In this document: in pieces, positions 19,040-44,740 of the stretch
How the letters are laid out: each line of letters starts with the position of its first letter
Position numbering within the stretch: position 1 is the stretch's first letter
Source: a virus
Taxonomy: Duplodnaviria; Heunggongvirae; Uroviricota; Caudoviricetes
Reading direction: 5' to 3' (one strand)
Virus record (IMG/VR): IMGVR_UViG_2617271072_000006
Coordinates: 1 to 44,740 of that record
DNA length: 44,740 nucleotides
Notes under the pieces: model-generated
What the model saw: only the letters and a program-made list of their open reading frames with translations
Told to the model about the DNA's origin: nothing
The model's database searches: none
Position numbers and translations under genes: made by a program

Positions 19040-19357
19040 TTGGCTATTCATATGCACGAAAAAGAGAGCCTTGCCGGAGCGTTCTGGCTCGTTTTGCTGA
19101 TCATCGCAGGTTGGGGCGGTCTGGTCCGCTACCTGATAGATGTGAAGCAGAGTAAAGCAACGTGGAGTTGGATAAATGCTCTGGCTCAGATAGTTGTATC
19201 AGGATTCACCGGTGTTATTGGTGGCCTGATCAGCATCGAAAGTGGATTCAGTATTTACATGATTCTCGCGACAGCGGGGATTAGTGGTGCGATGGGTTCG
19301 GTTGCACTGACGTACTTCTGGGAACGACTGACAGGGGTGAAAAATGCAAAATCTTAA
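19040..19357 (+). CDS. Putative holin
   Basis: 105-aa ORF with three predicted hydrophobic segments, MAIHM N-terminus and charged C-terminus, immediately upstream of the endolysin. Confidence 0.7.
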   Translation: MAIHMHEKESLAGAFWLVLLIIAGWGGLVRYLIDVKQSKATWSWINALAQIVVSGFTGVIGGLISIESGFSIYMILATAGISGAMGSVALTYFWERLTGVKNAKS

Positions 19358-19820
19358 TCCTCAGCGTAAAGCTTTCCTCGATATGCTGGCGTGGTCAGAG
19401 GGAACTGATAACGGACGTCAGAAAACCAGAAATCATGGTTATGACGTCATTGTAGGCGGAGAGCTATTTACTGATTACTCCGATCACCCTCGCAAACTTG
19501 TCACGCTAAACCCAAAACTCAAATCAACAGCAGCCGGGCGCTACCAGCTTCTTTCCCGTTGGTGGGATTCCTATCGTAAGCAGCTTGGCCTGAAAGACTT
19601 CTCTCCGAAAAGCCAAGACGCTGTGGCATTGCAGCAGATTAAAGAGCGTGGCGCTTTACCGATGATTGATCGCGGTGATATCCGTCAGGCTATCGATCGT
19701 TGCAGCAATATCTGGGCGTCGTTACCTGGTGCAGGTTACGGTCAGTATGAACATAAAATCAGTGACCTGATTTCCCGGTTTAAAGAGGCTGGTGGGGTGG
19801 TAAATGAAGTTGAGCTATAA
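19344..19820 (+). CDS. R: Endolysin, lambda R-type lytic transglycosylase
   Basis: 158-aa ORF near-identical to lambda R as recalled (NPQRKAFLDMLAWSEGTDNGRQKTRNHGYDVIVGGELFTDYSDHPRKL...). Confidence 0.95.
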   Translation: MQNLNPQRKAFLDMLAWSEGTDNGRQKTRNHGYDVIVGGELFTDYSDHPRKLVTLNPKLKSTAAGRYQLLSRWWDSYRKQLGLKDFSPKSQDAVALQQIKERGALPMIDRGDIRQAIDRCSNIWASLPGAGYGQYEHKISDLISRFKEAGGVVNEVEL

Positions 19821-20196
19821 GCTGGTTATCGCTGCATTCTTCTTTATTGTCATTGGTTCTTTCATCTGGTCTGCCAACCACTACTACAGCAAATATCAGC
19901 ACGAAAAGAAACGTGCTGATGAGGCTGTACAAAATGCCAAATCGGCAACTGCCATTACCAATAACGTCCTGCAATCACTGCAAATCGTCAATACAGTACT
20001 GGAGGCTAACCAGCATGCAAAACAGCAGATCGCACTGGGGTCACAGAGAACCCAGGAAGATATCAAAATGGCTGTTGCGGATGATGATTGTGCTTCACGT
20101 GCTGTGCCTGCTGCCGCTGCTGACCGGTTGCGGAAGTACGCGGACAGTTTACGTGAGCATTCCGGTGGCACCACTGCCACCCAGCCTGACTTCTGA
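19804..20196 (+). CDS. Rz: Rz-like i-spanin
   Basis: 130-aa ORF with N-terminal transmembrane segment and coiled-coil-like periplasmic region, overlapping R end. Confidence 0.7.
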   Translation: MKLSYKLVIAAFFFIVIGSFIWSANHYYSKYQHEKKRADEAVQNAKSATAITNNVLQSLQIVNTVLEANQHAKQQIALGSQRTQEDIKMAVADDDCASRAVPAAAADRLRKYADSLREHSGGTTATQPDF

Positions 20197-20338
20197 TACT
20201 CCTGTACCGTTTATACCTAATCCGCTGACGTATGGTGCCAGTCTGGAGCTGAATGTGAGTCTGATGGGGGCGCTGGGAATGTGTAACAGGGATAAAGAAG
20301 ATATTAGAACGATTGAGCAATCACGATCCTCGCAATAG
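20081..20338 (+). CDS. Rz1: Rz1-like o-spanin lipoprotein
   Basis: +1-frame ORF starting inside Rz: MMIVLHVLCLLPLLTGC lipobox, proline-rich mature region; extends past the Rz stop. Confidence 0.7.
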   Translation: MMIVLHVLCLLPLLTGCGSTRTVYVSIPVAPLPPSLTSDTPVPFIPNPLTYGASLELNVSLMGALGMCNRDKEDIRTIEQSRSSQ

Positions 20339-20361
20339 TGGGGTTTTTTAACAACTGAGGA

Positions 20362-20565
20362 ATGAGCATGACAGTAGTTCTTACAGCAAAACAGATTGAA
20401 GACCTGTCAGCCTTCGCAAAAGAAGATGGCCAGCCCAAGTACACCATCACCACCGGGACAATCCCGAAATTCGAAGCAGAAGATGGCGAGATTATCCCTG
20501 AATACACAGGACTGATCGCCTACTCAGAGTCACTTGAGCGCGGTGTGTTGCAACTCGACGACTAG
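20362..20565 (+). CDS. Hypothetical small protein downstream of lysis genes
   Basis: 67-aa ORF, no recognisable motif. Confidence 0.4.
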   Translation: MSMTVVLTAKQIEDLSAFAKEDGQPKYTITTGTIPKFEAEDGEIIPEYTGLIAYSESLERGVLQLDD

Positions 20566-20633
20566 CGGCATTACAGCAGTCATTCACTGAGTGTATGAGA
20601 TATAGCAAATTTGTATAGTATCGGAAGCGAGCA

Positions 20634-20669
20634 TTTGACATGGCTAACAATCTCAAAAGCCATGTCAAA
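20634..20669. terminator. Strong hairpin between convergent genes
   Basis: Perfect 11-bp stem TTGACATGGCT / AGCCATGTCAA with 12-nt loop between the + strand 67-aa ORF and the - strand moron. Confidence 0.5.
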
Positions 20670-20676
20670 GCTAATC

Positions 20677-21027
20677 TTATTTATTGAAGATCTGAAATAG
20701 AAGGCTACATATCGTAGCAATATTTGCCCCATAAGATAGGTATTTTGTAAACCCTATTCCATCAAATACAGTTAGCTGCTCTTGTTCAGTAGTAGCTTTG
20801 CTACTTACCAGCTCTTCATATGCCTGCTTTAGTTGTTCCAGAGGCGTTTCAGCTCTAATTCCTGCTGCATGAAGAGCCTGGATATTATCTTTATAGTTGA
20901 CTCCGTGTCCTTCATTTTCAGAGATATCAGTACCTATTATGACTAAATCTAAAGGATTACCGGCCTCGACTCTAATGCCATCACCGCCATTACCTTTAAT
21001 ACGGCCACCAATTAATGTTAATGTCAT
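20677..21027 (-). CDS. Hypothetical protein (AT-rich moron between lysis and packaging modules)
   Basis: 116-aa ORF with good RBS (AGGAAA, 8-nt spacer), own AT-rich upstream region, opposite strand to flanking late genes; possible beta-helix-like repeats (GGDGIRVEAG...IIGTDISENEG). Confidence 0.5.
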   Translation of the reverse strand: MTLTLIGGRIKGNGGDGIRVEAGNPLDLVIIGTDISENEGHGVNYKDNIQALHAAGIRAETPLEQLKQAYEELVSSKATTEQEQLTVFDGIGFTKYLSYGANIATICSLLFQIFNK

Positions 21028-21285
21028 TAATACTTTCCTTTATCAGATGAAAAATAAATTCTATTTTACATCACTAGCCACGTAAAAATATAAAGAATAT
21101 TTCCAGAATTGTTGTGGCTCACATTTTCTATAACTAAATACTATATCGCTGTCGTCTTTGAGTAAATGCTACTTAATCTGTCTACAAGCATTTTTATAGT
21201 CATCACAATGGGCGGATCCATCGTAATGGCTTAACATGAGCACTACTATGCTCCCTGCAAAAAACACATAACAGAAGGGCGGACA

Positions 21286-21636
21286 ATGCCACCACGCACA
21301 CCAAAGGCTTGCAGAGCAAGAGGCTGCCGCAACACGACAACCGATTCATCAGGCTACTGCGAGCTACACAAAAGCGAAGGCTGGAAGCAATACAAGCCAG
21401 GTCAGTCCCGTCATCAGCGCGGTTATGGTTCGAAGTGGGATGTTATCCGCGTGCGTGTGCTGAAGCGTGACAAAGGCCTGTGTCAGTTATGTCTGCGTGC
21501 TGGTGTGGTGCGTGAGGCGAAAACCGTTGACCACATCATCGCTAAAGCGCATGGCGGCACTGATGCCGACTGCAATCTGCAGAGTTTGTGCTGGCCGTGT
21601 CATAAGGCGAAGACGGCCCGTGAACGGCTGAAGTAA
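21286..21636 (+). CDS. HNH endonuclease (packaging-associated)
   Basis: 116-aa ORF with Cys/His-rich HNH motifs (CQLCLRAG...VDHIIAKAHGGTDADCNLQSLCWPCHKAK), directly upstream of the terminase genes. Confidence 0.85.
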   Translation: MPPRTPKACRARGCRNTTTDSSGYCELHKSEGWKQYKPGQSRHQRGYGSKWDVIRVRVLKRDKGLCQLCLRAGVVREAKTVDHIIAKAHGGTDADCNLQSLCWPCHKAKTARERLK

Positions 21637-33652: not shown

Positions 33653-35029
33653 ATGGATTTATCCTCATTTCCCACCCGACCTTCATTACTTTCGTCGTCT
33701 TCAGGCTGGCGTGACAGGCTTCAGGACGCGTCATTTCGCGGCGTGCCGTTTAAGGTTGAAGAAGAAAGTGCGGGAACCGGTCGCCGTGTGGAAACACATG
33801 AATACCCGAACCGCGACAAGCCCTATACCGAAGATCTGGGAAAAGTCACTTTCCGCCCGTCCATCACAGCTTATGTGGTGGGAGATGACTGCTTTGACCA
33901 GCGCGATCGCCTGATTGAAGCGCTGAATAAACCCGGTCCCGGCACGCTTGTCCACCCGACATATGGTGAGCTGAAAGTCTGTGTTGACGGGGAAGTTCGG
34001 GTCAGCACATCGAAAAGTGAAGGGCGTATTGTCCGCTTTGACCTGAAGTTTGTCGAAGCAGGAGAACTCTCTTACCCCACATCAGGTGCGGCGACGGCGC
34101 AGACGCTGATGTCATCCTGTTCTGCACTGGATGACTGCATTAGTGACAGCTTCAGCGGTTTCAGTATCGATGGTGTGGCGGATTTCGTGCAGAACGACGT
34201 TATCGGTAATGCCAGCATAATGCTGGGGTATGTTTCTGATGCGATGAAAGTGGTGGATTCTGCCGTATCGGATGCCGCCAGGCTGTTGCAGGGGGATATC
34301 TCGGTACTTCTGCCGCCGCCATCGTCAGGCAAAAATTTCGTTGAGCAGGTGCAGAAAATGTGGCGTACCGGGAAACGCCTTTATGGTAACGCCAGCGACC
34401 TGGTTACCATGATCAAAACGCTTTCCGGTGTCAGCCTCGGCAGCGATCTGCAACCGCGCGGCGTCTGGAAAACGGACAGTAAAACCACCGCCACGGCGAC
34501 GCAGCAGCGTAACGTGGTTGCCAGCACCCTTCGTACGACCGCAATCAGCGAAGTGGCGTATGCCGTCACCCGATTGCCTGCGCCAACAACTTCCGCGGTG
34601 ATGCAGAATTCCGCAGTGGGGCAGGCAACAACACCCGCGCAGAGCACTGGCTGGCCTTCCGTCACGCATCCGGCACTGAACAATGCACCGGCGGTGAAAA
34701 ACACGGTTGACCTGCCGACGTGGGAAGAACTGACTGACATTCGCGACACACTGAATACGGCAATTGATAAGGAGTTGTCCCGTACAACCAGTGATGCGCT
34801 GTTTCTGGCGCTGCGCCGGGTGAAAGCAGATCTGAATGCGGATATCAACACGCGCCTTGAACAGTCTGCACGGATCATTCAGCGCACACCGGATGAGGTT
34901 TTACCCGCGCTGGTGCTGGCGGCGACCTGGTTTGATAACGCGGCGCGTGACGCGGACATTATCCGGCGTAATGCCATTACGCATCCCGGCTTTGTGCCGG
35001 TGATCCCTCTGAAGGTGCCAGTGCAATGA
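33653..35029 (+). CDS. Mu gpN-like DNA circularisation / tail protein
   Basis: 458-aa ORF with DRLQDASFRGVPFKVEEE N-terminal motif; position between tape measure and baseplate hub. Confidence 0.7.
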   Translation: MDLSSFPTRPSLLSSSSGWRDRLQDASFRGVPFKVEEESAGTGRRVETHEYPNRDKPYTEDLGKVTFRPSITAYVVGDDCFDQRDRLIEALNKPGPGTLVHPTYGELKVCVDGEVRVSTSKSEGRIVRFDLKFVEAGELSYPTSGAATAQTLMSSCSALDDCISDSFSGFSIDGVADFVQNDVIGNASIMLGYVSDAMKVVDSAVSDAARLLQGDISVLLPPPSSGKNFVEQVQKMWRTGKRLYGNASDLVTMIKTLSGVSLGSDLQPRGVWKTDSKTTATATQQRNVVASTLRTTAISEVAYAVTRLPAPTTSAVMQNSAVGQATTPAQSTGWPSVTHPALNNAPAVKNTVDLPTWEELTDIRDTLNTAIDKELSRTTSDALFLALRRVKADLNADINTRLEQSARIIQRTPDEVLPALVLAATWFDNAARDADIIRRNAITHPGFVPVIPLKVPVQ

Positions 35030-36105
35030 ACGACAATGTCACGCTACGGGTAAATGGCCGGGAGTGGAATGGCTGGACATCGGTGCGCATCGGTGCCGGT
35101 ATTGAACGGCTGGCGCGGGATTTCAGTGTGGAGATCACCCGCCAGTGGCCGGGAGATGAGGGTATCACCACGCTTCAGCCGCGCATTAAAAACGGTTCAA
35201 AAGTGGAAGTGCTGATTGGTGATGAGCTGGTGATCACCGGCTGGGTGGAGGCGACGCCCGTTCGTTACGATGCCCGTTCGGTCAGCACCGGTATTGCCGG
35301 ACGTAGTCTGACGGCTGACCTGATTGACTGTGCAGCCGAACCGACACAGTTTAACGGACGCTCGCTGGTGCAGATTGCGCAGGCGCTTGCTGCGCCTTTC
35401 GGCATTGAGGTGGTGAACAGCGGTGCGCCGTCGGGTGTTATTCCTGATGTTCAGCCTGATCACGGTGAAACGGTGATTGAGGTAATCAACAAAATACTCG
35501 GTCAGCAGCAGGCACTGGCTTACGACGACCCGCACGGCAGGCTGGTGATTGGCGGTATTGGCTCAACGCGGGCACATACTGCGCTGGTACTCGGGGAAAA
35601 CATCCTTTCCTGTGATACGGAGAAGAGTATCCGGGAGCGGTTTTCTGTTTACCAGGTGGCGGGGCAGCGTGCCGGAAACGACGATGATTTCGGTGAGGCC
35701 ACCACCACCGCGCTGCGGGCCCGCACAGAGGACGCATTTATTGCCCGTTACCGTCCGATGTATATCAGGCAGACAGGGCAGGCTACGGGGGCAGGCTGTA
35801 TTGCCCGTGCGGACTTTGAAGCCAGACAACGGGCGGCGCGGACGGATGAAACCACCTATGTGGTGCAGGGCTGGCGACAGGGTAACGGTACGCTGTGGCA
35901 GCCCAACCAGCGGGTGATTGTCTTTGATCCGGTCTGTGGTTTCGACAATACCGAACTGCTTGTTTCGGAAGTCACGTTTACTCAGGACCAGAACGGCACC
36001 CTGACGGAAATCCGTGTCGGCCCACCTGATGCTTATCTGCCTGAACCCGAAGCCCCCGGCGCGCGAAAAAAGAAAAAAGCCAGAGTACAGGAGGACCCGT
36101 TCTGA
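35026..36105 (+). CDS. Mu gpP-like baseplate hub protein
   Basis: 359-aa ORF; conserved order N-P-gp45-gp46-gp47-gp48 of Mu-type tails. Confidence 0.7.
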   Translation: MNDNVTLRVNGREWNGWTSVRIGAGIERLARDFSVEITRQWPGDEGITTLQPRIKNGSKVEVLIGDELVITGWVEATPVRYDARSVSTGIAGRSLTADLIDCAAEPTQFNGRSLVQIAQALAAPFGIEVVNSGAPSGVIPDVQPDHGETVIEVINKILGQQQALAYDDPHGRLVIGGIGSTRAHTALVLGENILSCDTEKSIRERFSVYQVAGQRAGNDDDFGEATTTALRARTEDAFIARYRPMYIRQTGQATGAGCIARADFEARQRAARTDETTYVVQGWRQGNGTLWQPNQRVIVFDPVCGFDNTELLVSEVTFTQDQNGTLTEIRVGPPDAYLPEPEAPGARKKKKARVQEDPF

Positions 36106-36653
36106 TGAGGACGATTGAAGCCATGCAGCGACAACTCCTCGGCCTGATTGGGCGGGCCGTGGTGAAAAGCATCAGTGCCGCCACGAAATGTCAGACCGTG
36201 GATGTGTCTCTGATTGCCGGTGAACCCAAAGCCGGGGTTGAACATCTTGAACCCTACGGTTTTACCGCAAGGGCAAACAGCGGTGCGGAAGCGGTGGTGT
36301 TGTTTCCGGATGGCGACCGTTCTCATGCGGTGGTTGTTACGGTGTCGGACCGGCGCTACCGCCTGAAAGGGCTGCAGACGGGTGAGGTGGCTGTCTATGA
36401 CGATCAGGGGCAGTCCGTGACGCTGACCCGGGAGGGGATCGTGGTGGACGGTGCAGGTAAAACGATCACGTTTCGCAATGCGCCTAAGGCTCGTTTTGAA
36501 ATGGACCTGGAAGTGACCGGACAGGTGAAAGACCTGTGCGACTCCAGCGGCACCACCATGTCAGCGATGCGGCTTGCCTATAACGGGCATCGTCACAGAG
36601 AGAACGGTCAGGGCAGTAACACCGACAAACCTGATAAAGCGATGGAGGCATGA
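36105..36653 (+). CDS. Baseplate assembly/spike protein (Mu gp45 / gpV-like)
   Basis: 182-aa ORF following the hub gene. Confidence 0.7.
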   Translation: MRTIEAMQRQLLGLIGRAVVKSISAATKCQTVDVSLIAGEPKAGVEHLEPYGFTARANSGAEAVVLFPDGDRSHAVVVTVSDRRYRLKGLQTGEVAVYDDQGQSVTLTREGIVVDGAGKTITFRNAPKARFEMDLEVTGQVKDLCDSSGTTMSAMRLAYNGHRHRENGQGSNTDKPDKAMEA

Positions 36654-37078
36654 TGGAACTGTGGCTGACGGTGAACGGTAAACGCACCTGCGCTAGCGCA
36701 CCGCTGGATCCGCTGACCCGTGCCGTGGTGATTTCCCTGTTCACCTGGCGGCGGGCTGAACCTGATGACAATGCCGACGTCCCGATGGGATGGTGGGGGG
36801 ATACCTGGCCTGCGGTACAGAATGACCGTTACGGCTCCCGACTGTGGCTGCTTCAGCGCAGCAAACTGACCAATCAGCTGGTGCAGACGGTAAGGGGGTA
36901 TATCCGCGAATGCCTGCAATGGATGATTGATGACGGCGTGGTGTCCCGTATTGATCTGGATATCCGCCGCACCGGGATTAATGAACTGGGTAACAGTATC
37001 ACTCTCTGGCGTCGTGACGGACCGGTAATGATTTCTTTTGATGATCTGTGGAGTGCGATAACGCATGGCGGACAGTGA
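36650..37078 (+). CDS. Mu gp46-like baseplate protein
   Basis: 142-aa ORF in conserved position. Confidence 0.7.
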   Translation: MMELWLTVNGKRTCASAPLDPLTRAVVISLFTWRRAEPDDNADVPMGWWGDTWPAVQNDRYGSRLWLLQRSKLTNQLVQTVRGYIRECLQWMIDDGVVSRIDLDIRRTGINELGNSITLWRRDGPVMISFDDLWSAITHGGQ

Positions 37079-38123
37079 ATTTCAGCGCCCGACGCTGGCA
37101 GAAAATATCAGTATGCTCCGTAACGATTTATTCGCCAGGCTGGACGTCAGCGACACGCTCCGGCGCATGGATGAAGACGTGCGGGCAAAGGTGTATGCGG
37201 CGGCGCTGCATACGGTTTACGGTTACATCGATTATCTGGCAATGAACATGCTGCCTGACCTGTGCGATGAGTCCTGGCTGGCGCGACATGCTGCGATGAA
37301 ACGGTGTCCGCGCAAGGGGGCCACGGCTGCCAGCGGGTATATGCGCTGGGAAGGTGTCAGCGATGGCCTGAAAGTGACCGCCGGGAGCGTGATTCAGCGC
37401 GATGACCTGGTTCAGTACACGGCAACTGCCGATGCAACCAGCTCCGGTGGTGTCCTGCGCGTGCCGATCGCCTGCTCAAGTGCAGGCGCGGTCGGTAACG
37501 CTGACGACGGTACGGCATTAATCCTGGTCACGCCGGTGAATGGTCTGCCGTCTTCCGGTGTGGCTGACACCCTGACAGGCGGATTTGATACTGAAGAGCT
37601 GGAAACGTGGCGCGCCCGCGTCATTGAGCGGTATTACTGGACGCCTCAGGGCGGGGCTGACGGGGACTATGTCGTCTGGGCTAAAGAAGTGCCCGGCATT
37701 ACCCGCGCATGGACATACCGACACTGGATGGGAACGGGGACTGTCGGTGTGATGATTGCCAGCAGTGACCTGATTAATCCCATTCCGGAAGAGTCAACGG
37801 AAACGGCGGCAAGACAACATATCGGGCCATTGGCCCCGGTGGCAGGCTCTGATTTGTATGTATTCAGGCCGGTGGCGCATAAAGTGGATTTTCATATCCG
37901 CGTGACGCCGGACACACCGGAAATACGGGCTGCCATCACCGCCGAGTTGCGTTCGTTCCTGCTGCGTGATGGTTATCCGCAGGGAGAACTGAAGGTGTCA
38001 CGTATCAGTGAAGCGATTTCCGGTGCGAACGGGGAATACAGCCATCAGTTGCTTGCACCGGCAGACAATATCTCCATTGCAAAAAATGAGCTGGCAGTTC
38101 TGGGGACGATTTCATGGACGTGA
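37065..38123 (+). CDS. Baseplate J-like protein (Mu gp47-like)
   Basis: 352-aa ORF in conserved position. Confidence 0.75.
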
Positions 38124-38698
38124 CAAACGATGATTATATCCGTCTGTTGTCGGCACTGTTGCCGCCCGGTCCGGCGTGGTCAGTCAGCGATCCGGCGATT
38201 GCCGGTGCGGCACCGTCATTAACCCGCGTTCATCAGCGTGCGGATGCCCTGATGCGGGAGCTGGATCCGCGCACCACCACTGAACTGATAAACCGCTGGG
38301 AGCGTCTGTGCGGTCTGCCGGATGAATGTATTCCCGCAGGGACACAGACCCTTCGCCAGCGTCAGCAACGGCTGGATGCGAAGGTTAATCTGGCGGGCGG
38401 CATCAATGAGGATTTTTACCTTGCACAGCTTGCTGCCCTGGGCAGACCAGACGCCACTATCACGCGATACGATAAAAGCACGTTCACCTGCTCATCGGCC
38501 TGTACTGACGCAGTGAATGCGCTGGAATGGCGGTATTACTGGCAGGTCAACATGCCAGCTGCCACCAACACCACCTGGATGACATGTGGCGATCCCTGTG
38601 ATTCCGCACTGCGTATCTGGGGCGACACCGTTGTCGAGTGTGTGCTTAACAAACTCTGCCCGTCGCATACCTACGTAATTTTTAAATATCCGGAGTAA
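38114..38698 (+). CDS. Mu gp48-like tail protein
   Basis: 194-aa ORF between baseplate J and tail fibre genes. Confidence 0.7.
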
Positions 38699-38701
38699 TC
38701 C

Positions 38702-39457
38702 ATGCATCGTATAGACACGAAAACCGCGCAGAAGGATAAGTTCGGCGCGGGTAAGAACGGTTTTACCCGTGGTAACCCCCAGACCGGCACACCTGCCACC
38801 GATCTGGATGATGACTACTTTGACATGTTGCAGGAGGAGCTTTGCGGCGTGGTGGAGGCATCCGGTGCCAGCCTGGAGAAGGGGCGGCACGACCAGCTGC
38901 TTACCGCGCTTAGTGCGCTACTGTTAAGCCGCAAAAATCCGTTTGGCGATATCAAATCGGACGGCACGGTGAAAACGGCTCTCGAAAACCTTGGTTTGGG
39001 AGAAGGCTCTGCATTACCTGTTGGTGTGCCTGTTCCGTGGCCCTCAGCCACTCCGCCAACAGGCTGGCTAAAATGCAACGGAGCAGCTTTTTCTGCTGAA
39101 GAATACCCGGAACTGGCAAAGGCTTACCCGACAAATAAATTGCCTGATTTACGCGGTGAATTTATTCGTGGCTGGGATGACGGACGTGGAGTGGATGCCG
39201 GGCGACAATTATTATCTTCACAGGGGGATGCAATAAGAAATATTGAGGGATTCGCAGATGGCGGGATCGGCATGTCTTTTGATGCAATCAGAGGGGCTTT
39301 TTACGATGCAGGAACACGATCAGCGAGAATGCCGAATAACACAACTGATATAGGCAAAACCGATGACCTTGGATTCGACGCCTCTCGTGTCGTGCCAACA
39401 GCTAATGAAAACCGTCCACGTAACATCGCCTTTAATTATATTGTGAGGGCTGCATAA
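38702..39457 (+). CDS. Tail fibre protein, constant N-terminal part plus variable C-terminal tip 1 (Mu S / P2 H-type)
   Basis: 251-aa ORF; first 102 aa identical to the inverted copy at 40452-41036; tip contains PWP...[23 protein letters not shown]...[17 protein letters not shown]. Confidence 0.85.
38981..39004 (+). other. Din-invertase-type crossover site (gix/hix/cix-like) at the constant/variable junction of tail fibre gene 1
   Basis: CTCGAAAACC-TT-GGTTTGGGAGAA: dyad AAAACC..GGTTT with TTCTC-type outer half-sites, resembling hix/gix consensus as recalled. Confidence 0.6.
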
Positions 39458-40451: not shown

Positions 40452-41036
40452 TCAATACCCCACCGCTATAATGTCCACATTAAATCCTCCGGGACCTGCC
40501 TGCCAGATGCTGGCCCCTGTTAATGATTTTGTTTGATGAACAACCGCCACATTTGCTGGCGATTGTGTTTCAGTTGTTACAGTACCGATATCATTCCAGT
40601 TAATTGAGATGGAATAGTTCGTTGTTGTAAACGACCGGGGGAAAGTTATGTGTCTTACATTGGTGCCAATAGGAAATCCAAGATAAACACGCTGAATTAT
40701 CATTCCTCCAGGTAACATAACCCAGTTAGCACCTTCTCCCAAACCAAGGTTTTCGAGAGCCGTTTTCACCGTGCCGTCCGATTTGATATCGCCAAACGGA
40801 TTTTTGCGGCTTAACAGTAGCGCACTAAGCGCGGTAAGCAGCTGGTCGTGCCGCCCCTTCTCCAGGCTGGCACCGGATGCCTCCACCACGCCACAAAGCT
40901 CTTCCTGCAACATGTCAAAGTAGTCATCATCCAGATCGGTGGCAGGTGTGCCGGTCTGGGGGTTACCACGGGTAAAACCGTTCTTACCCGCGCCGAACTT
41001 ATCCTTCTGCGCGGTTTTCGTGTCTATACGATGCAT
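40452..41036 (-). CDS. Tail fibre protein of the inverted module, same constant N-terminus with different C-terminal tip 2
   Basis: 194-aa ORF; residues 1-102 identical to fibre 1, then unrelated C-terminus. Confidence 0.85.
40734..40759 (-). other. Second Din-type crossover site, inverted relative to site 1
   Basis: TTCTCCCAAACC-AA-GGTTTTCGAGAG, exact reverse complement of the site at 38981-39004, at the constant/variable junction of fibre gene 2. Confidence 0.6.
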
Positions 41037-41039
41037 GGA

Positions 41040-41624
41040 TTACTCCGGATATTTAAAAATTACGTAGGTATGCGACGGGCAGAGTTTGTTAAGCACACAT
41101 TCGACAACGGTGTCGCCCCAGATACGCAGCGCGGAATCACAGGGATCGCCACATGTCATCCAGGTGGTGTTTGTGGCGGCTGGCATGTTGACCTGCCAGT
41201 AATACCGCCATTCCGGCGCATTCACCGCGTCAGTACAGACCGATGAGCAGGTGAACGTGCTTTTGTCGTATCGCGTGATGTTGGCATCTGGTCTGCCCAG
41301 GGCAGCAAGCTGTGCAAGATAAAAATTCTCGTTGATGCTGCCCGCCAGGTTAACCTTCGCATCCAGCCGTTGCTGACGCTGACGAAGGGTCTGTGTCCCT
41401 GCGGGAATACATTCATCCGGCAGACCGCACAGACGCTCCCAGCGGTTTATCAGTTCAGTGGTGGTGCGCGGATCCAGCTCCCGCATCAGGGCATCCGCAC
41501 GCTGATGAACACGGGTTAATGACGGTGCCGCACCGGCAATCGCCGGATCGCTGGCTGACCACGCCGGACCGGGCGGCAACAGTGCCGATAACAGGCGGAT
41601 GTAATCATCGTTTGTCACGTCCAT
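41040..41624 (-). CDS. Mu gp48-like tail protein, second (inverted) copy
   Basis: 194 aa, 6 substitutions relative to 38114-38698 (~97% identity). Confidence 0.7.
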
Positions 41625-42673
41625 GAAATCGTCCCCAGTACCGCCAGTTCGTTTTTCGCAATGGAGATATTGTCCACCGGTGCAAGCAACTGATGGCTGT
41701 ATTCCCCGTTCGCACCGGAAATCGCCTCACTGATACGCGATACCTTCAGTTCTCCCTGCGGATAACCATCACGCAGCAGGAACGAACGCAACTCCGCGGT
41801 AATGGCAGCCCGTATTTCTGGTGTGTCCGGCGTCACGCGGATATGAAAATCCACCGTATGTGCCACCGGCCTGAATACATACAAATCAGAGCCTGCCACC
41901 GGGGCCAGTGGCCCGATATGTTGTCTTGCTGCCGTTTCCGTTGATTCTTCCGGAATGGGGTTAATCAGGTCACTGCTGGCAATCATCACACCGACAGTCC
42001 CCGTTCCCATCCAGTGTCGGTATGTCCATGCGCGGGTAATGCCGGGCACTTCTTTAGCCCAGACGACATAGTCCCCGTCAGCCCCGCCCTGAGGCGTCCA
42101 GTAATACCGCTCAATGACGCGGGCGCGCCACGTTTCCAGCTCTTCAGTATCAAATCCGCCTGTAAGGGTGTCAGCCACACCGGAAGACGGCAGACCATTC
42201 ACCGGCGTGACCAGGATTAATGCCGTACCGTCGTCAGCGTTACCGACCGCGCCTGTAGTTGAGCAAGTGATCGGCACACGCAGGACACCACCGGAGCTGG
42301 TTGCATCGGCAGTTGCCGTGTACTGAACCAGGTCATCGCGCTGAATCACGCTCCCGGCAGTCACCTTCAGGCCATCGCTGACACCTTCCCAGCGCATATA
42401 CCCGCTGGCAGCCGTGGCCCCCTTGCGCGGACACCGTTTCATCGCAGCATGTCGCGCCAGCCAGGACTCATCGCACAGGTCAGGCAGCATGTTCATTGCC
42501 AGATAATCGATGTACCCGTAAACCGTATGCAGCGCCGCCGCATACACCTTTGCCCGCACGTCTTCATCCATGCGCCGGAGCGTGTCGCTGACGTCCAGCC
42601 TGGCGAATAAATCGTTACGGAGCATACTGATATTTTCTGCCAGCGTCGGGCGCTGAAATTCACTGTCCGCCAT
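41615..42673 (-). CDS. Baseplate J-like protein, second (inverted) copy
   Basis: 352 aa, a few substitutions relative to 37065-38123. Confidence 0.75.
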
Positions 42674-43087
42674 GCGTTATCGCACTCCACAGATCATCAA
42701 AAGAAATCATTACCGGTCCGTCACGACGCCAGAGAGTGATACTGTTACCCAGTTCATTAATCCCGGTGCGGCGAATATCCAGATCAATACGGGACACCAC
42801 GCCGTCATCAATCATCCATTGCAGGCATTCGCGGATATACCCCCTTACCGTCTGCACCAGCTGATTGGTCAGTTTGCTGCGCTGAAGCAGCCACAGTCGG
42901 GAGCCGTAACGGTCATTCTGTACCGCAGGCAGGTATCCCCCCACCATCCCATCGGGACGTCGGCGTTGTCATCAGGCTCCGCCCGCCGCCAGGTAAACAG
43001 GGAAATCACCACGGCGCGGGTCAGCGGATCCAGCGGTGCGCTGGCGCAGGTGCGTTTACCGTTCACCGTCAGCCACAGTTCCATCAT
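42660..43087 (-). CDS. Mu gp46-like protein, second copy; frameshifted as assembled
   Basis: ORFs 42869-43087 and 42660-42947 correspond to the two halves of gp46; one G missing relative to copy 1 near 42925-42935. Confidence 0.65.
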
Positions 43088-43722
43088 GCCTCCATCGCTT
43101 TATCAGGTTTGTCGGTGTTACTGCCCTGACCGTTCTCTCTGTGACGATGCCCGTTATAGGCAAGCCGCATCGCTGACATGGTGGTGCCGCCGGAGTCGCA
43201 CAGGTCTTTCACCTGTCCTGTCACTTCCAGGTCCATTTCAAAACGTGCCTTAGGCGCATTGCGAAACGTGATCGTTTTACCTGCACCGTCCACCACGATC
43301 CCCTCCCGGGTCAGCGTCACGGACTGCCCCTGATCGTCATAGACAGCCACCTCACCCGTCTGCAGCCCTTTCAGGCGGTAGCGCCGGTCCGACACCGTAA
43401 CAACCACCGCATGAGAACGGTCGCCATCCGGAAACAACACCACCGCTTCCGCACCGCTGTTTGCCCTTGAGGTAAAACCGTAGGGTTCAAGATGTTCAAC
43501 CCCTGCTTTGGGTTCACCGGCAATCAGGGACACATCCACGGTCTGACATTTCGTGGCGGCACTGATGCTTTTCACCACGGCCCGCCCAATCAGGCCGAGG
43601 AGTTGTCGCTGCATGGCTTCAATCGTCCTCATCAGAACGGGTCCTCCTGTACTCTGGCTTTTTTCTTTTTCCGCGCGCGGAGGCTTCGGGTTCAGGCAGA
43701 TAAGCATCAGGCGGACCGACAC
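43084..43722 (-). CDS. Baseplate gp45-like protein, second copy (apparent N-terminal extension)
   Basis: 212-aa ORF; last 182 aa match 36105-36653; extension arises from an indel difference in the gpP/gp45 junction. Confidence 0.65.
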   Translation of the reverse strand: MSVRLMLICLNPKPPRAEKEKSQSTGGPVLMRTIEAMQRQLLGLIGRAVVKSISAATKCQTVDVSLIAGEPKAGVEHLEPYGFTSRANSGAEAVVLFPDGDRSHAVVVTVSDRRYRLKGLQTGEVAVYDDQGQSVTLTREGIVVDGAGKTITFRNAPKARFEMDLEVTGQVKDLCDSGGTTMSAMRLAYNGHRHRENGQGSNTDKPDKAMEA

Positions 43723-44710
43723 GGATTTCCGTCAGGGTGCCGTTCTGGTCCTGAGTAAACGTGACTTCCGAAACAAGCAGTTCGGTATTGTCGAAACCAC
43801 AGACCGGATCGAAGACAATCACCCGCTGGTTGGGCTGCCACAGCGTACCGTTACCCTGTCGCCAGCCCTGCACCACATAGGTGGTTTCATCCGTCCGCGC
43901 CGCCCGTTGTCGGGCTTCAAAGTCAGCACGCGCAATACAGCCTGCCCCCGTGGCCTGCCCTGTCTGCCTGATATACATCGGACGGTAACGGGAAATAAAT
44001 GCGTCCTCTGTGCGGGCCCGCAGCGCGGTGGTGGTGGCCTCACCGAAATCATCGTCGTTTCCGGCACGCTGCCCCGCCACCTGGTAAACAGAAAACCGCT
44101 CCCGGATACTCTTCTCCGTATCACAGGAAAGGATGTTTTCCCCGAGTACAAGCGTGGTATGTGCCCGCGTTGAGCCAATACCGCCAATCACCAGCCTGCC
44201 GTGCGGGTCGTCGTAAGCCAGTGCCTGCTGCTGACCGAGTATTTTGTTGATCACCTCAATCACCGTTTCGCCGTGATCAGGCTGGACATCAGGAATAACG
44301 CCCGACGGCGCACCGTTGTTCACCACCTCAATGCCGAAAGGCGCAGCAAGCGCCTGCGCAATCTGTACCAGCGATCGTCCGTTAAACTGTGTCGGTTCGG
44401 CTGCACAGTCAATCAGGTCAGCGGTCAGACTACGTCCGGCAATACCGGTGCTGACCGAACGGGCATCGTAACGAACGGGAGTCGCCTCCACCCAGCCGGT
44501 GATCACCAGCTCATCACCAATCAGCACTTCCACTTTTGAACCGTTTTTAATGCGCGGCTGAAGCGTGGTGATACCCTCATCTCCCGGCCACTGGCGGGTG
44601 ATCTCCACACTGAAATCCCGCGCCAGCCGTTCAATACCGGCACCGATGCGCACCGATGTCCAGCCATTCCACTCCCGGCCATTTACCCGTAGCGTGACAT
44701 TGTCGTTCAT
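43619..44710 (-). CDS. Mu gpP-like baseplate hub, second copy
   Basis: 363-aa ORF near-identical to 35026-36105 except for a frame difference in the last ~20 codons. Confidence 0.7.
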   Translation of the reverse strand: MNDNVTLRVNGREWNGWTSVRIGAGIERLARDFSVEITRQWPGDEGITTLQPRIKNGSKVEVLIGDELVITGWVEATPVRYDARSVSTGIAGRSLTADLIDCAAEPTQFNGRSLVQIAQALAAPFGIEVVNNGAPSGVIPDVQPDHGETVIEVINKILGQQQALAYDDPHGRLVIGGIGSTRAHTTLVLGENILSCDTEKSIRERFSVYQVAGQRAGNDDDFGEATTTALRARTEDAFISRYRPMYIRQTGQATGAGCIARADFEARQRAARTDETTYVVQGWRQGNGTLWQPNQRVIVFDPVCGFDNTELLVSEVTFTQDQNGTLTEIRVGPPDAYLPEPEASARGKRKKPEYRRTRSDEDD

Positions 44711-44740
44711 TGCACTGGCACCTTCAGAGGGATCACCGGC
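44707..44740 (-). CDS. 3' end of gpN-like gene of the second module (partial, runs off window)
   Basis: Minus-strand sequence mirrors the gpN/gpP overlap of copy 1 (..VIPLKVPVQ stop overlapping ATG). Confidence 0.5.
   Translation of the reverse strand, partial: PVIPLKVPVQ

Follow-up and report, generated by a model that had tools for sequence, protein, structure and literature searches.

What has been inserted between the lysis and packaging genes of a lambdoid Escherichia coli prophage, and whom might it serve? The question is raised by positions 20362 to 21285 of the IMG/VR virus record IMGVR_UViG_2617271072_000006, a 44,740-nucleotide caudoviricete sequence that is referred to here as the window. 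Over the region tested, the window is 100% identical to a prophage of E. coli QEC11-421. It represents an E. coli prophage of the HK97-head type, in which a lambdoid late operon is combined with a packaging module of the HK97 type. The genes run from the Q antiterminator through a holin, a GH24 lysozyme, Rz and Rz1/LysC to a 67-aa open reading frame (ORF), a 116-aa ORF on the minus strand and an HNH endonuclease gene, to the right of which lie a P27-type small terminase, the large terminase, YmfR and the portal gene. An earlier note on this DNA had read the AT-rich interval as a moron placed against late transcription in a hotspot of phage accessory genes. Comparative analysis bears this out: positions 20603-21274 are a bona fide, self-contained, horizontally acquired moron of an established sort, and it is the cargo, a 116-aa protein, that is uncharacterised.

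Morons have been defined as extra DNA of deviating GC content that carries its own promoter and terminator and is expressed from the repressed prophage (PMC3594210), and two of these marks, extra DNA in a syntenic setting and deviating base composition, are both found at this locus. Among 5426 complete E. coli genomes, the whole 1-kb region occurs in only three, and 32 further genomes match the part with the 67-aa gene alone, their matches ending at about 20602-20608. In the collinear prophage of strain KSC1031, the 67-aa gene is followed by 64 bp and then by the same HNH, small terminase, large terminase and portal genes, compared with a gap of 720 bp between the 67-aa and HNH genes in the window, and pairwise alignment with KSC1031 delimits the extra DNA of about 670 bases. 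Measured in 200-nt windows, GC content falls to 0.29-0.42 over 20600-21200 versus 0.50-0.59 on both flanks, confirming the AT-richness described before; the 116-aa gene itself has 38% GC and its 260-nt upstream region 34%. The same contrast recurs at eight other loci of the protein family described below (gene 38-43%, flanks 50-56%). The core common to homologous morons extends to about 21238. The segment 21243-21281, between the moron and the HNH start codon, is not found in the homologous morons L005, L006, L007 and L012, and it holds a short inverted repeat, GAGCA-CTACTA-TGCTC.

The insertion point is a genuine accessory-gene hotspot, since relatives carry different cargo at the same point. 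E. coli Nissle 1917 and phi80 harbor an unrelated minus-strand gene of 204 aa with its own GC-rich hairpin, mEp390 carries glycosyltransferase and HNH genes, and the equivalent slot in lambda is occupied by bor, also on the minus strand. Morons in the lysis-to-packaging slot have yielded classic lysogenic-conversion genes, of which bor is an example. In UMNK88-type prophages (L029/L030, 7470-7754), the late-strand neighbor of a member of the 116-aa family encodes a Pfam Acb2_Tad1_hairpin domain, which we take to represent the anti-CBASS/anti-Thoeris sponge family, and because of this gene the slot can be said to hold counter-defence genes as well. A second accessory slot was noted in an Enterobacter-type relative (L020, 10205-12178), where an opposite-strand gene between the Q and holin genes encodes a 657-aa product with SMC_N, AAA_15 and AAA_21 domains, an ATPase type known from OLD/Gabija-like defence systems.

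The left edge of the insertion coincides with a conserved linker of 36-44 nt, which is common to phages with and without a moron and recurs at 86-90% identity behind unrelated upstream genes in many phages. In E. coli and Klebsiella phages, phi80 among them, the linker follows the 67-aa gene, rha, a DUF2560 gene or still other genes, and further copies were located in L031 (phi80, 1901-1944), L032 (1501-1536), L002, L003 and L004. The linker consensus, GGCATTACAGCAGGCATTCACTGAGTGCCTGTGATAATG, contains a 6-bp stem (CAGGCA/TGCCTG) and an extended -10-like element (TGTGATAAT); no match to it was found in Rfam. Minus-strand morons of two unrelated families lie directly to its right, and the linker may be a recombination linker or a promoter. 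A further match occurs in a phage record labelled Elizabethkingia.

The product of the cargo gene is annotated in RefSeq as hypothetical protein WP_072656763.1 and has four close homologues, 80-98% identical and every one 116 aa long. Against the homologues of 80-89% identity, the pairwise ratio of nonsynonymous to synonymous substitution rates (dN/dS) is 0.12-0.40 at a dS of 0.28-0.45, and the 116-aa gene is therefore real. A module comprising about 215 nt upstream, the ORF, the hairpin behind it and about 70 nt beyond is 83-91% conserved in L005, L007, L012 and L013. The ribosome-binding site that had been attributed to this gene is present and well spaced, with a Shine-Dalgarno sequence, AAGGAAAG, that is conserved in L005, L007 and L013. 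In the AT-rich upstream region, a single promoter-like match to the sigma-70 consensus (9/12, with its -10 element ending 30 nt before the ATG) is a candidate for the gene's own promoter, and -10-like elements 28-30 nt before the ATG occur in four branches, with matches at chance level.

The hairpin behind the gene is perfect, as the earlier note had stated, but its stem is 12 bp long rather than 11. The arms TTTGACATGGCT and AGCCATGTCAAA include five G-C pairs, and only 7 nt lie between the 116-aa gene's stop codon and the structure. Its minimum free energy is -21.3 kcal/mol on the plus strand (z -5.4) and -20.6 kcal/mol on the minus strand (z -3.8), and none of 200 shuffled sequences folds as well. 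The 44.7-kb window contains just one other perfect inverted repeat of at least 12 bp with arms within 40 nt. The 10-bp core of the stem is unaltered in L005, L007 and L013; the nine substitutions that occur (in L005 and L013) are confined to the loop or the top two stem pairs, without covariation, a pattern which suggests that the stem is under selection. Distant family members carry hairpins unrelated in sequence at the same place, and most members have one. No known RNA was matched in Rfam. The other perfect 12-bp inverted repeat of the window, at 1330-1365 (TGCTTTTTTATA / TATAAAAAAGCA), lies just downstream of the 3' end of the integrase gene, which occupies 1419-2489 on the minus strand; it could be either a terminator or a site associated with att.

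An exhaustive HMMER search over 1.84 billion representatives recovered about 17 more clusters of 112-154 aa that align end to end at 26-43% identity, giving a family of about 20 clusters, and also large beta-helix proteins, which match residues 5-45 only. Named members originate from Enterobacter, E. coli, Klebsiella aerogenes and Sodalis, and NCBI designates them either as hypothetical or as right-handed parallel beta-helix repeat-containing proteins. In 9/9 distinct contexts, representing every member whose neighborhood was readable, the gene has lysis genes on one side and packaging genes on the other and runs counter to the late operon, and this position and orientation are kept even at 26-33% identity. 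The phage backbones differ widely across these contexts, with endolysins of the GH24, GH19, GH108 and phage lysozyme types, different holins, and terminases of the P27/HK97, lambda GpA, Terminase_6C and Terminase_3 types. All members are AT-rich relative to their flanks. The variant of the window occurs in three and the UMNK88-type variant in two of the 5426 complete E. coli genomes. In IMG/VR, one locus of 99% identity was found, on one contig; no relative was found in GTDB species-representative genomes, and tblastn searches of 50,697 deposited phage genomes with the window protein, P0005, P0022 and P0034 returned no match. This is a rare, position-locked prophage family of the Enterobacterales. 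Two apparent relatives were dismissed: the match of the TPR protein P0021 to the C-terminal domain is a low-complexity artefact, and a 117-aa minus-strand gene beside terS in Klebsiella phage ST101-KPC2phi6.3 does not belong to the family, hhalign assigning it a probability of 0.5%.

The window protein has no match in Pfam (at E<=1) or in NCBIfam, and the only PHROG that it resembles is the uncharacterised phrog_36866 (E 0.006), which is matched by 12/25 members. The family does, however, carry beta-helix repeats: its profile matches the repeats of AlgE4 (E 1.5e-6), and 15/25 members match Pfam Beta_helix (PF13229), the best being P0017 with 33.1 bits against a cut-off of 25.9. With these repeats, and with about 20 homologous clusters, the earlier statement that neither product of the region is recognisable was too strong for the 116-aa protein. 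An AlphaFold2 model built from a 25-sequence alignment, with a mean predicted local distance difference test score of 86 and a predicted template-modelling score (pTM) of 0.57, places strands at residues 2-11, 18-22, 27-36 and 43-47, forming two beta-helix rungs (about residues 2-47), and helices at residues 48-55, 63-76, 81-90, 93-96 and 103-114 in a C-terminal domain (residues 48-116). The modelled rungs superpose on AlgG with a root-mean-square deviation of 1.4 A over 47 residues, as a prediction, and other structural matches of the model include GH110, pectin lyase, and tail fibres and tailspikes. Members have two to four rungs. The last helix bears the conserved motif GANxATIxSLxxQIF, and the helical C-terminal domain is novel and family-specific. 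The modelled architecture has no characterised relative.

The protein is acidic (isoelectric point 4.9), and its N-terminus, MTLTLIGGRIKGNGGDG, is without a hydrophobic signal sequence, lipobox or cysteine. The highest 17-residue hydropathy, 1.34, is reached only at the C-terminal helix. A membrane tail-anchor at this helix was considered and found unconvincing, as it has about 11 hydrophobic residues and charged ones in several members. A relationship to J-domain (DnaJ) proteins, which have a four-helix J fold with an HPD motif behind helix II, was likewise rejected, the match being a short motif and the HPD motif being absent.

The 67-aa ORF, which the earlier note had included in the moron and called unrecognisable, is a conserved late-operon gene and a neighbor of the moron. 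It matches phrog_9518 with an E-value of 3.6e-37 (the family of mEp390 gp53 and N15 gp56), and it occurs without the moron in KSC1031, Nissle, mEp390 and N15. Since each gene occurs without the other, the 67-aa gene is placed outside the moron. RefSeq starts this ORF at the ATG at 20368, giving 65 aa, with a better spacing to a GAGGA Shine-Dalgarno sequence than the start at 20362. Lambda lambdap79, which was considered as a relative, is not related. A canonical terminator-like hairpin on the late strand at 20328-20343 (CCTCGCAATAGTGGGG followed by TTTTTT) overlaps the end of Rz1/LysC, precedes the 67-aa gene and is kept in KSC1031, so that within the late operon a stem-loop stands on either side of the 67-aa gene. 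The features of the region are compiled in Table 1.

Table 1. Features in and around the insertion between the lysis and packaging genes (positions refer to the window)
Feature	Position	Strand	Remarks
LydA-type holin	19040-19357		
GH24 lysozyme	19344-19820		
Rz	19804-20196		Embedded Rz1/LysC reaching 20338
67-aa late-operon gene	20362/20368-20565	+	phrog_9518; outside the moron
Conserved intergenic linker	20567-20602		Left edge of the insertion
Moron	20603-21274	-	AT-rich; missing from the collinear KSC1031 prophage
Stem-loop	20634-20669		Perfect 12-bp stem, 12-nt loop
116-aa gene	20677-21027	-	Two predicted PbH1 rungs and helical C-terminal domain
Shine-Dalgarno sequence AAGGAAAG	21033-21040	-	AGGA core 8 nt from the ATG
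Candidate sigma-70 promoter TTTACG-17-TAGAAT	21086-21058	-	Weak, putative
Window-specific 39-nt segment	21243-21281		
HNH endonuclease	21286-21636	+	PF01844, E 5.7e-14; right bound of the insertion

Comparison with known systems separates what is familiar in this locus from what is not. The moron shares with lambda bor the slot downstream of Rz/Rz1 and before the packaging end, the antisense orientation and a single small gene product (97 aa in lambda, 116 aa here), and bor is among the few lambda genes expressed in the lysogen (PMC7067206). However, Bor is an outer-membrane lipoprotein conferring serum resistance, whereas the 116-aa protein, which lacks a signal peptide and a lipobox, is not similar to Bor in sequence and has a predicted cytoplasmic fold of beta-helix rungs and helices; it is not a member of the Bor lipoprotein family. 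With the prototype moron, gp15 of HK97, the locus shares extra DNA of deviating GC content, a presumed promoter and terminator of its own and the limitation to one small gene, and both morons are carried by phages of the HK97 type; gp15 is a membrane superinfection-exclusion protein encoded in the tail operon (PMC3594210). The two differ in location and in their unrelated cargo, exclusion being only a guess for the 116-aa protein. A similar arrangement is that of phi80 gp52 and Nissle 1917 WP_000993911.1 (204 aa), which have the same linker to the left, antisense orientation and their own hairpin after the gene, but encode an unrelated protein that is also uncharacterised and has no Pfam match. 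PbH1 proteins, such as the AlgE4/AlgG epimerases, pectate lyases and tailspikes, share with the family the repeat signature h-I-x-G-x-x-I-x-x-N-x-G-x-G-h and the predicted rung geometry. These proteins possess 8-15 rungs, whereas the 116-aa protein has two (two to four in the family) fused to a family-specific helical domain, and it is without a catalytic groove, secretion signal, trimerisation domain or virion-attachment domain.

We favor, at somewhat better than even chances, the reading that the moron works as follows and carries a cargo of benefit to the lysogen. A promoter of its own, situated in the 258 bp of AT-rich DNA upstream, would drive the 116-aa gene. Since late transcription from pR' runs against the gene, expression would fall mainly in the lysogen, where the late operon is silent. 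That the orientation is antisense in every context speaks for a need to keep the gene out of the late transcript, as would be expected of a gene expressed in lysogens. The moron transcript would end at the 12-bp stem-loop, a structure that probably makes up the mRNA's 3' end and shields the lysis genes against antisense transcripts. Because a U-rich tail (AAUCUUAUUUAUU) follows the stem on the late-operon strand, the same structure may also stop rightward transcripts that have not been antiterminated, so that leaky transcripts would halt there and Q-modified polymerase would read through during lytic growth. The product would be a small, acidic, cytoplasmic protein in which two rungs are capped by the helical domain, and it would most likely act by binding, since it is too small for an enzyme and two rungs provide no catalytic groove. 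Through an exposed beta-helix edge the protein could dimerise or stack, be it on itself or on a partner, and the GANxATIxSLxxQIF helix could form a packing or oligomerisation surface. By analogy, our guess is that its role is superinfection exclusion, anti-phage activity or another benefit to the lysogen, and not that of a Bor-like envelope or virulence factor.

Several observations weigh against individual parts of this proposal. The stem-loop does not have the features of a canonical intrinsic terminator (G+C-rich stem, loop of 3-8 nt, U-tract): its loop measures 12 nt, the sense strand of the 116-aa gene has no U-tract (its tail is CGCUUCCGAU), and a terminator scan did not call it on either strand. 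The number of promoter matches upstream is no higher than in shuffled sequence, and TTTACG-17-TAGAAT has an equivalent in L013 and is degenerate in L005, the 89%-identical homologue. Special constraint on the 5' region was rejected, because upstream non-coding divergence (K 0.18-0.30) is about the rate at third codon positions (0.21-0.27) and no regulatory constraint is visible. The pTM of the model leaves the relative placement of the two domains uncertain. No family of the PADLOC-DB 2.0 defence models matches the 67-aa or the 116-aa protein at E<=10, and no characterised PHROG resembles the latter; the guess at an exclusion or defence role draws on position and precedent only. In addition, the Acb2/Tad1-like late gene adjacent to the family in one branch means that the slot also carries genes of benefit to the phage.

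It is this last point that gives substance to a reversed view of the cassette, in which it benefits the phage and the 116-aa protein is an anti-defence or host-takeover protein, active in lytic growth or at the start of infection and expressed from a constitutive or early promoter of its own. Late-strand accessory genes in the slot, including the Acb2/Tad1-hairpin-like gene beside the UMNK88-type member and the glycosyltransferases of mEp390, are consistent with it, and many anti-defence proteins are, like this one, small, acidic and cytoplasmic. We nevertheless judge it unlikely. The antisense orientation in 9/9 contexts would set the gene on a head-on collision course with heavy late transcription, and no anti-defence homology was found for the protein in Pfam and PHROG searches. 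Its arrangement is instead that of the lysogen-expressed bor (PMC7067206). The lysogen-benefit reading can also be pushed further, to a hitherto unrecognised single-gene prophage exclusion or defence family of two-rung mini-proteins, kept in the bor slot of numerous enterobacterial lambdoid prophages, that would act by edge-to-edge stacking of beta-helices, either capping or poisoning the folding of beta-helix tailspikes or depolymerases of incoming phages or undergoing templated polymerisation. HET-s, in which a two-rung solenoid is joined to a helical effector domain, offers a loose analogy to the templated variant; we regard this extension as distinctly improbable.

The remaining explanations concern the palindrome and the status of the genes. 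The palindrome at 20634-20669 might primarily be a protein-binding or recombination site rather than a terminator. It could, for instance, be an operator bound by the moron protein, the C-terminal domain of which bears a weak resemblance to three-helix DNA-binding bundles; we consider this explanation of the palindrome very improbable. The ORF might also be what is left of a larger, decaying beta-helix gene, such as a tailspike or depolymerase, and have no function of its own; in favor of this are the N-terminal repeats, which match tailspike PHROGs in three members (phrog_7458, E 2e-7) as well as large beta-helix proteins. The dN/dS values, the length of 112-117 aa kept in most clusters, the conserved start and Shine-Dalgarno sequence, the family-specific C-terminal domain and the constant position across unrelated phage backbones have largely refuted it, leaving it barely credible. 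Adjacency and convergence around one hairpin could likewise make the 67-aa and 116-aa genes a two-gene system, for example a toxin-antitoxin pair. Their distribution refutes this, and we give it next to no credence: they assort independently, the 67-aa gene occurring without the 116-aa gene in 32/35 matching E. coli genomes, mEp390 and N15, and the 116-aa family lying behind 127-aa, 76-aa, 96-aa, Rz and other genes.

Elsewhere in the window, an inverted duplication of about 4 kb was observed, the arms of which (35000-39006 and 40732-44736) are 97-98% complementary. Each arm contains Mu-like baseplate genes (a GpP-like hub, Baseplate_J and a Mu Gp48-like gene), and the 1.7-kb centre between them holds a tail-fibre tip with a Collar domain and two convergent tail-fibre-assembly genes. 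The duplication could represent head-to-head tail modules, a recombined or invertible fibre region, or an assembly artefact.

Collectively, a moron at this position is in itself no surprise to a phage specialist, and if its cargo has no phenotype, the locus becomes one more annotated moron. Its interest lies in the cargo, in which two beta-helix rungs are predicted to sit on a private helical domain, an unusual architecture. Prophage accessory slots are now a main source of new anti-phage and anti-defence genes. As a family that is small, rare, restricted to prophages of the Enterobacterales, missing from the deposited phage genomes queried, fixed in one position and orientation across unrelated backbones and held under purifying selection, this one is a cheap, well-defined candidate for phenotype screens.
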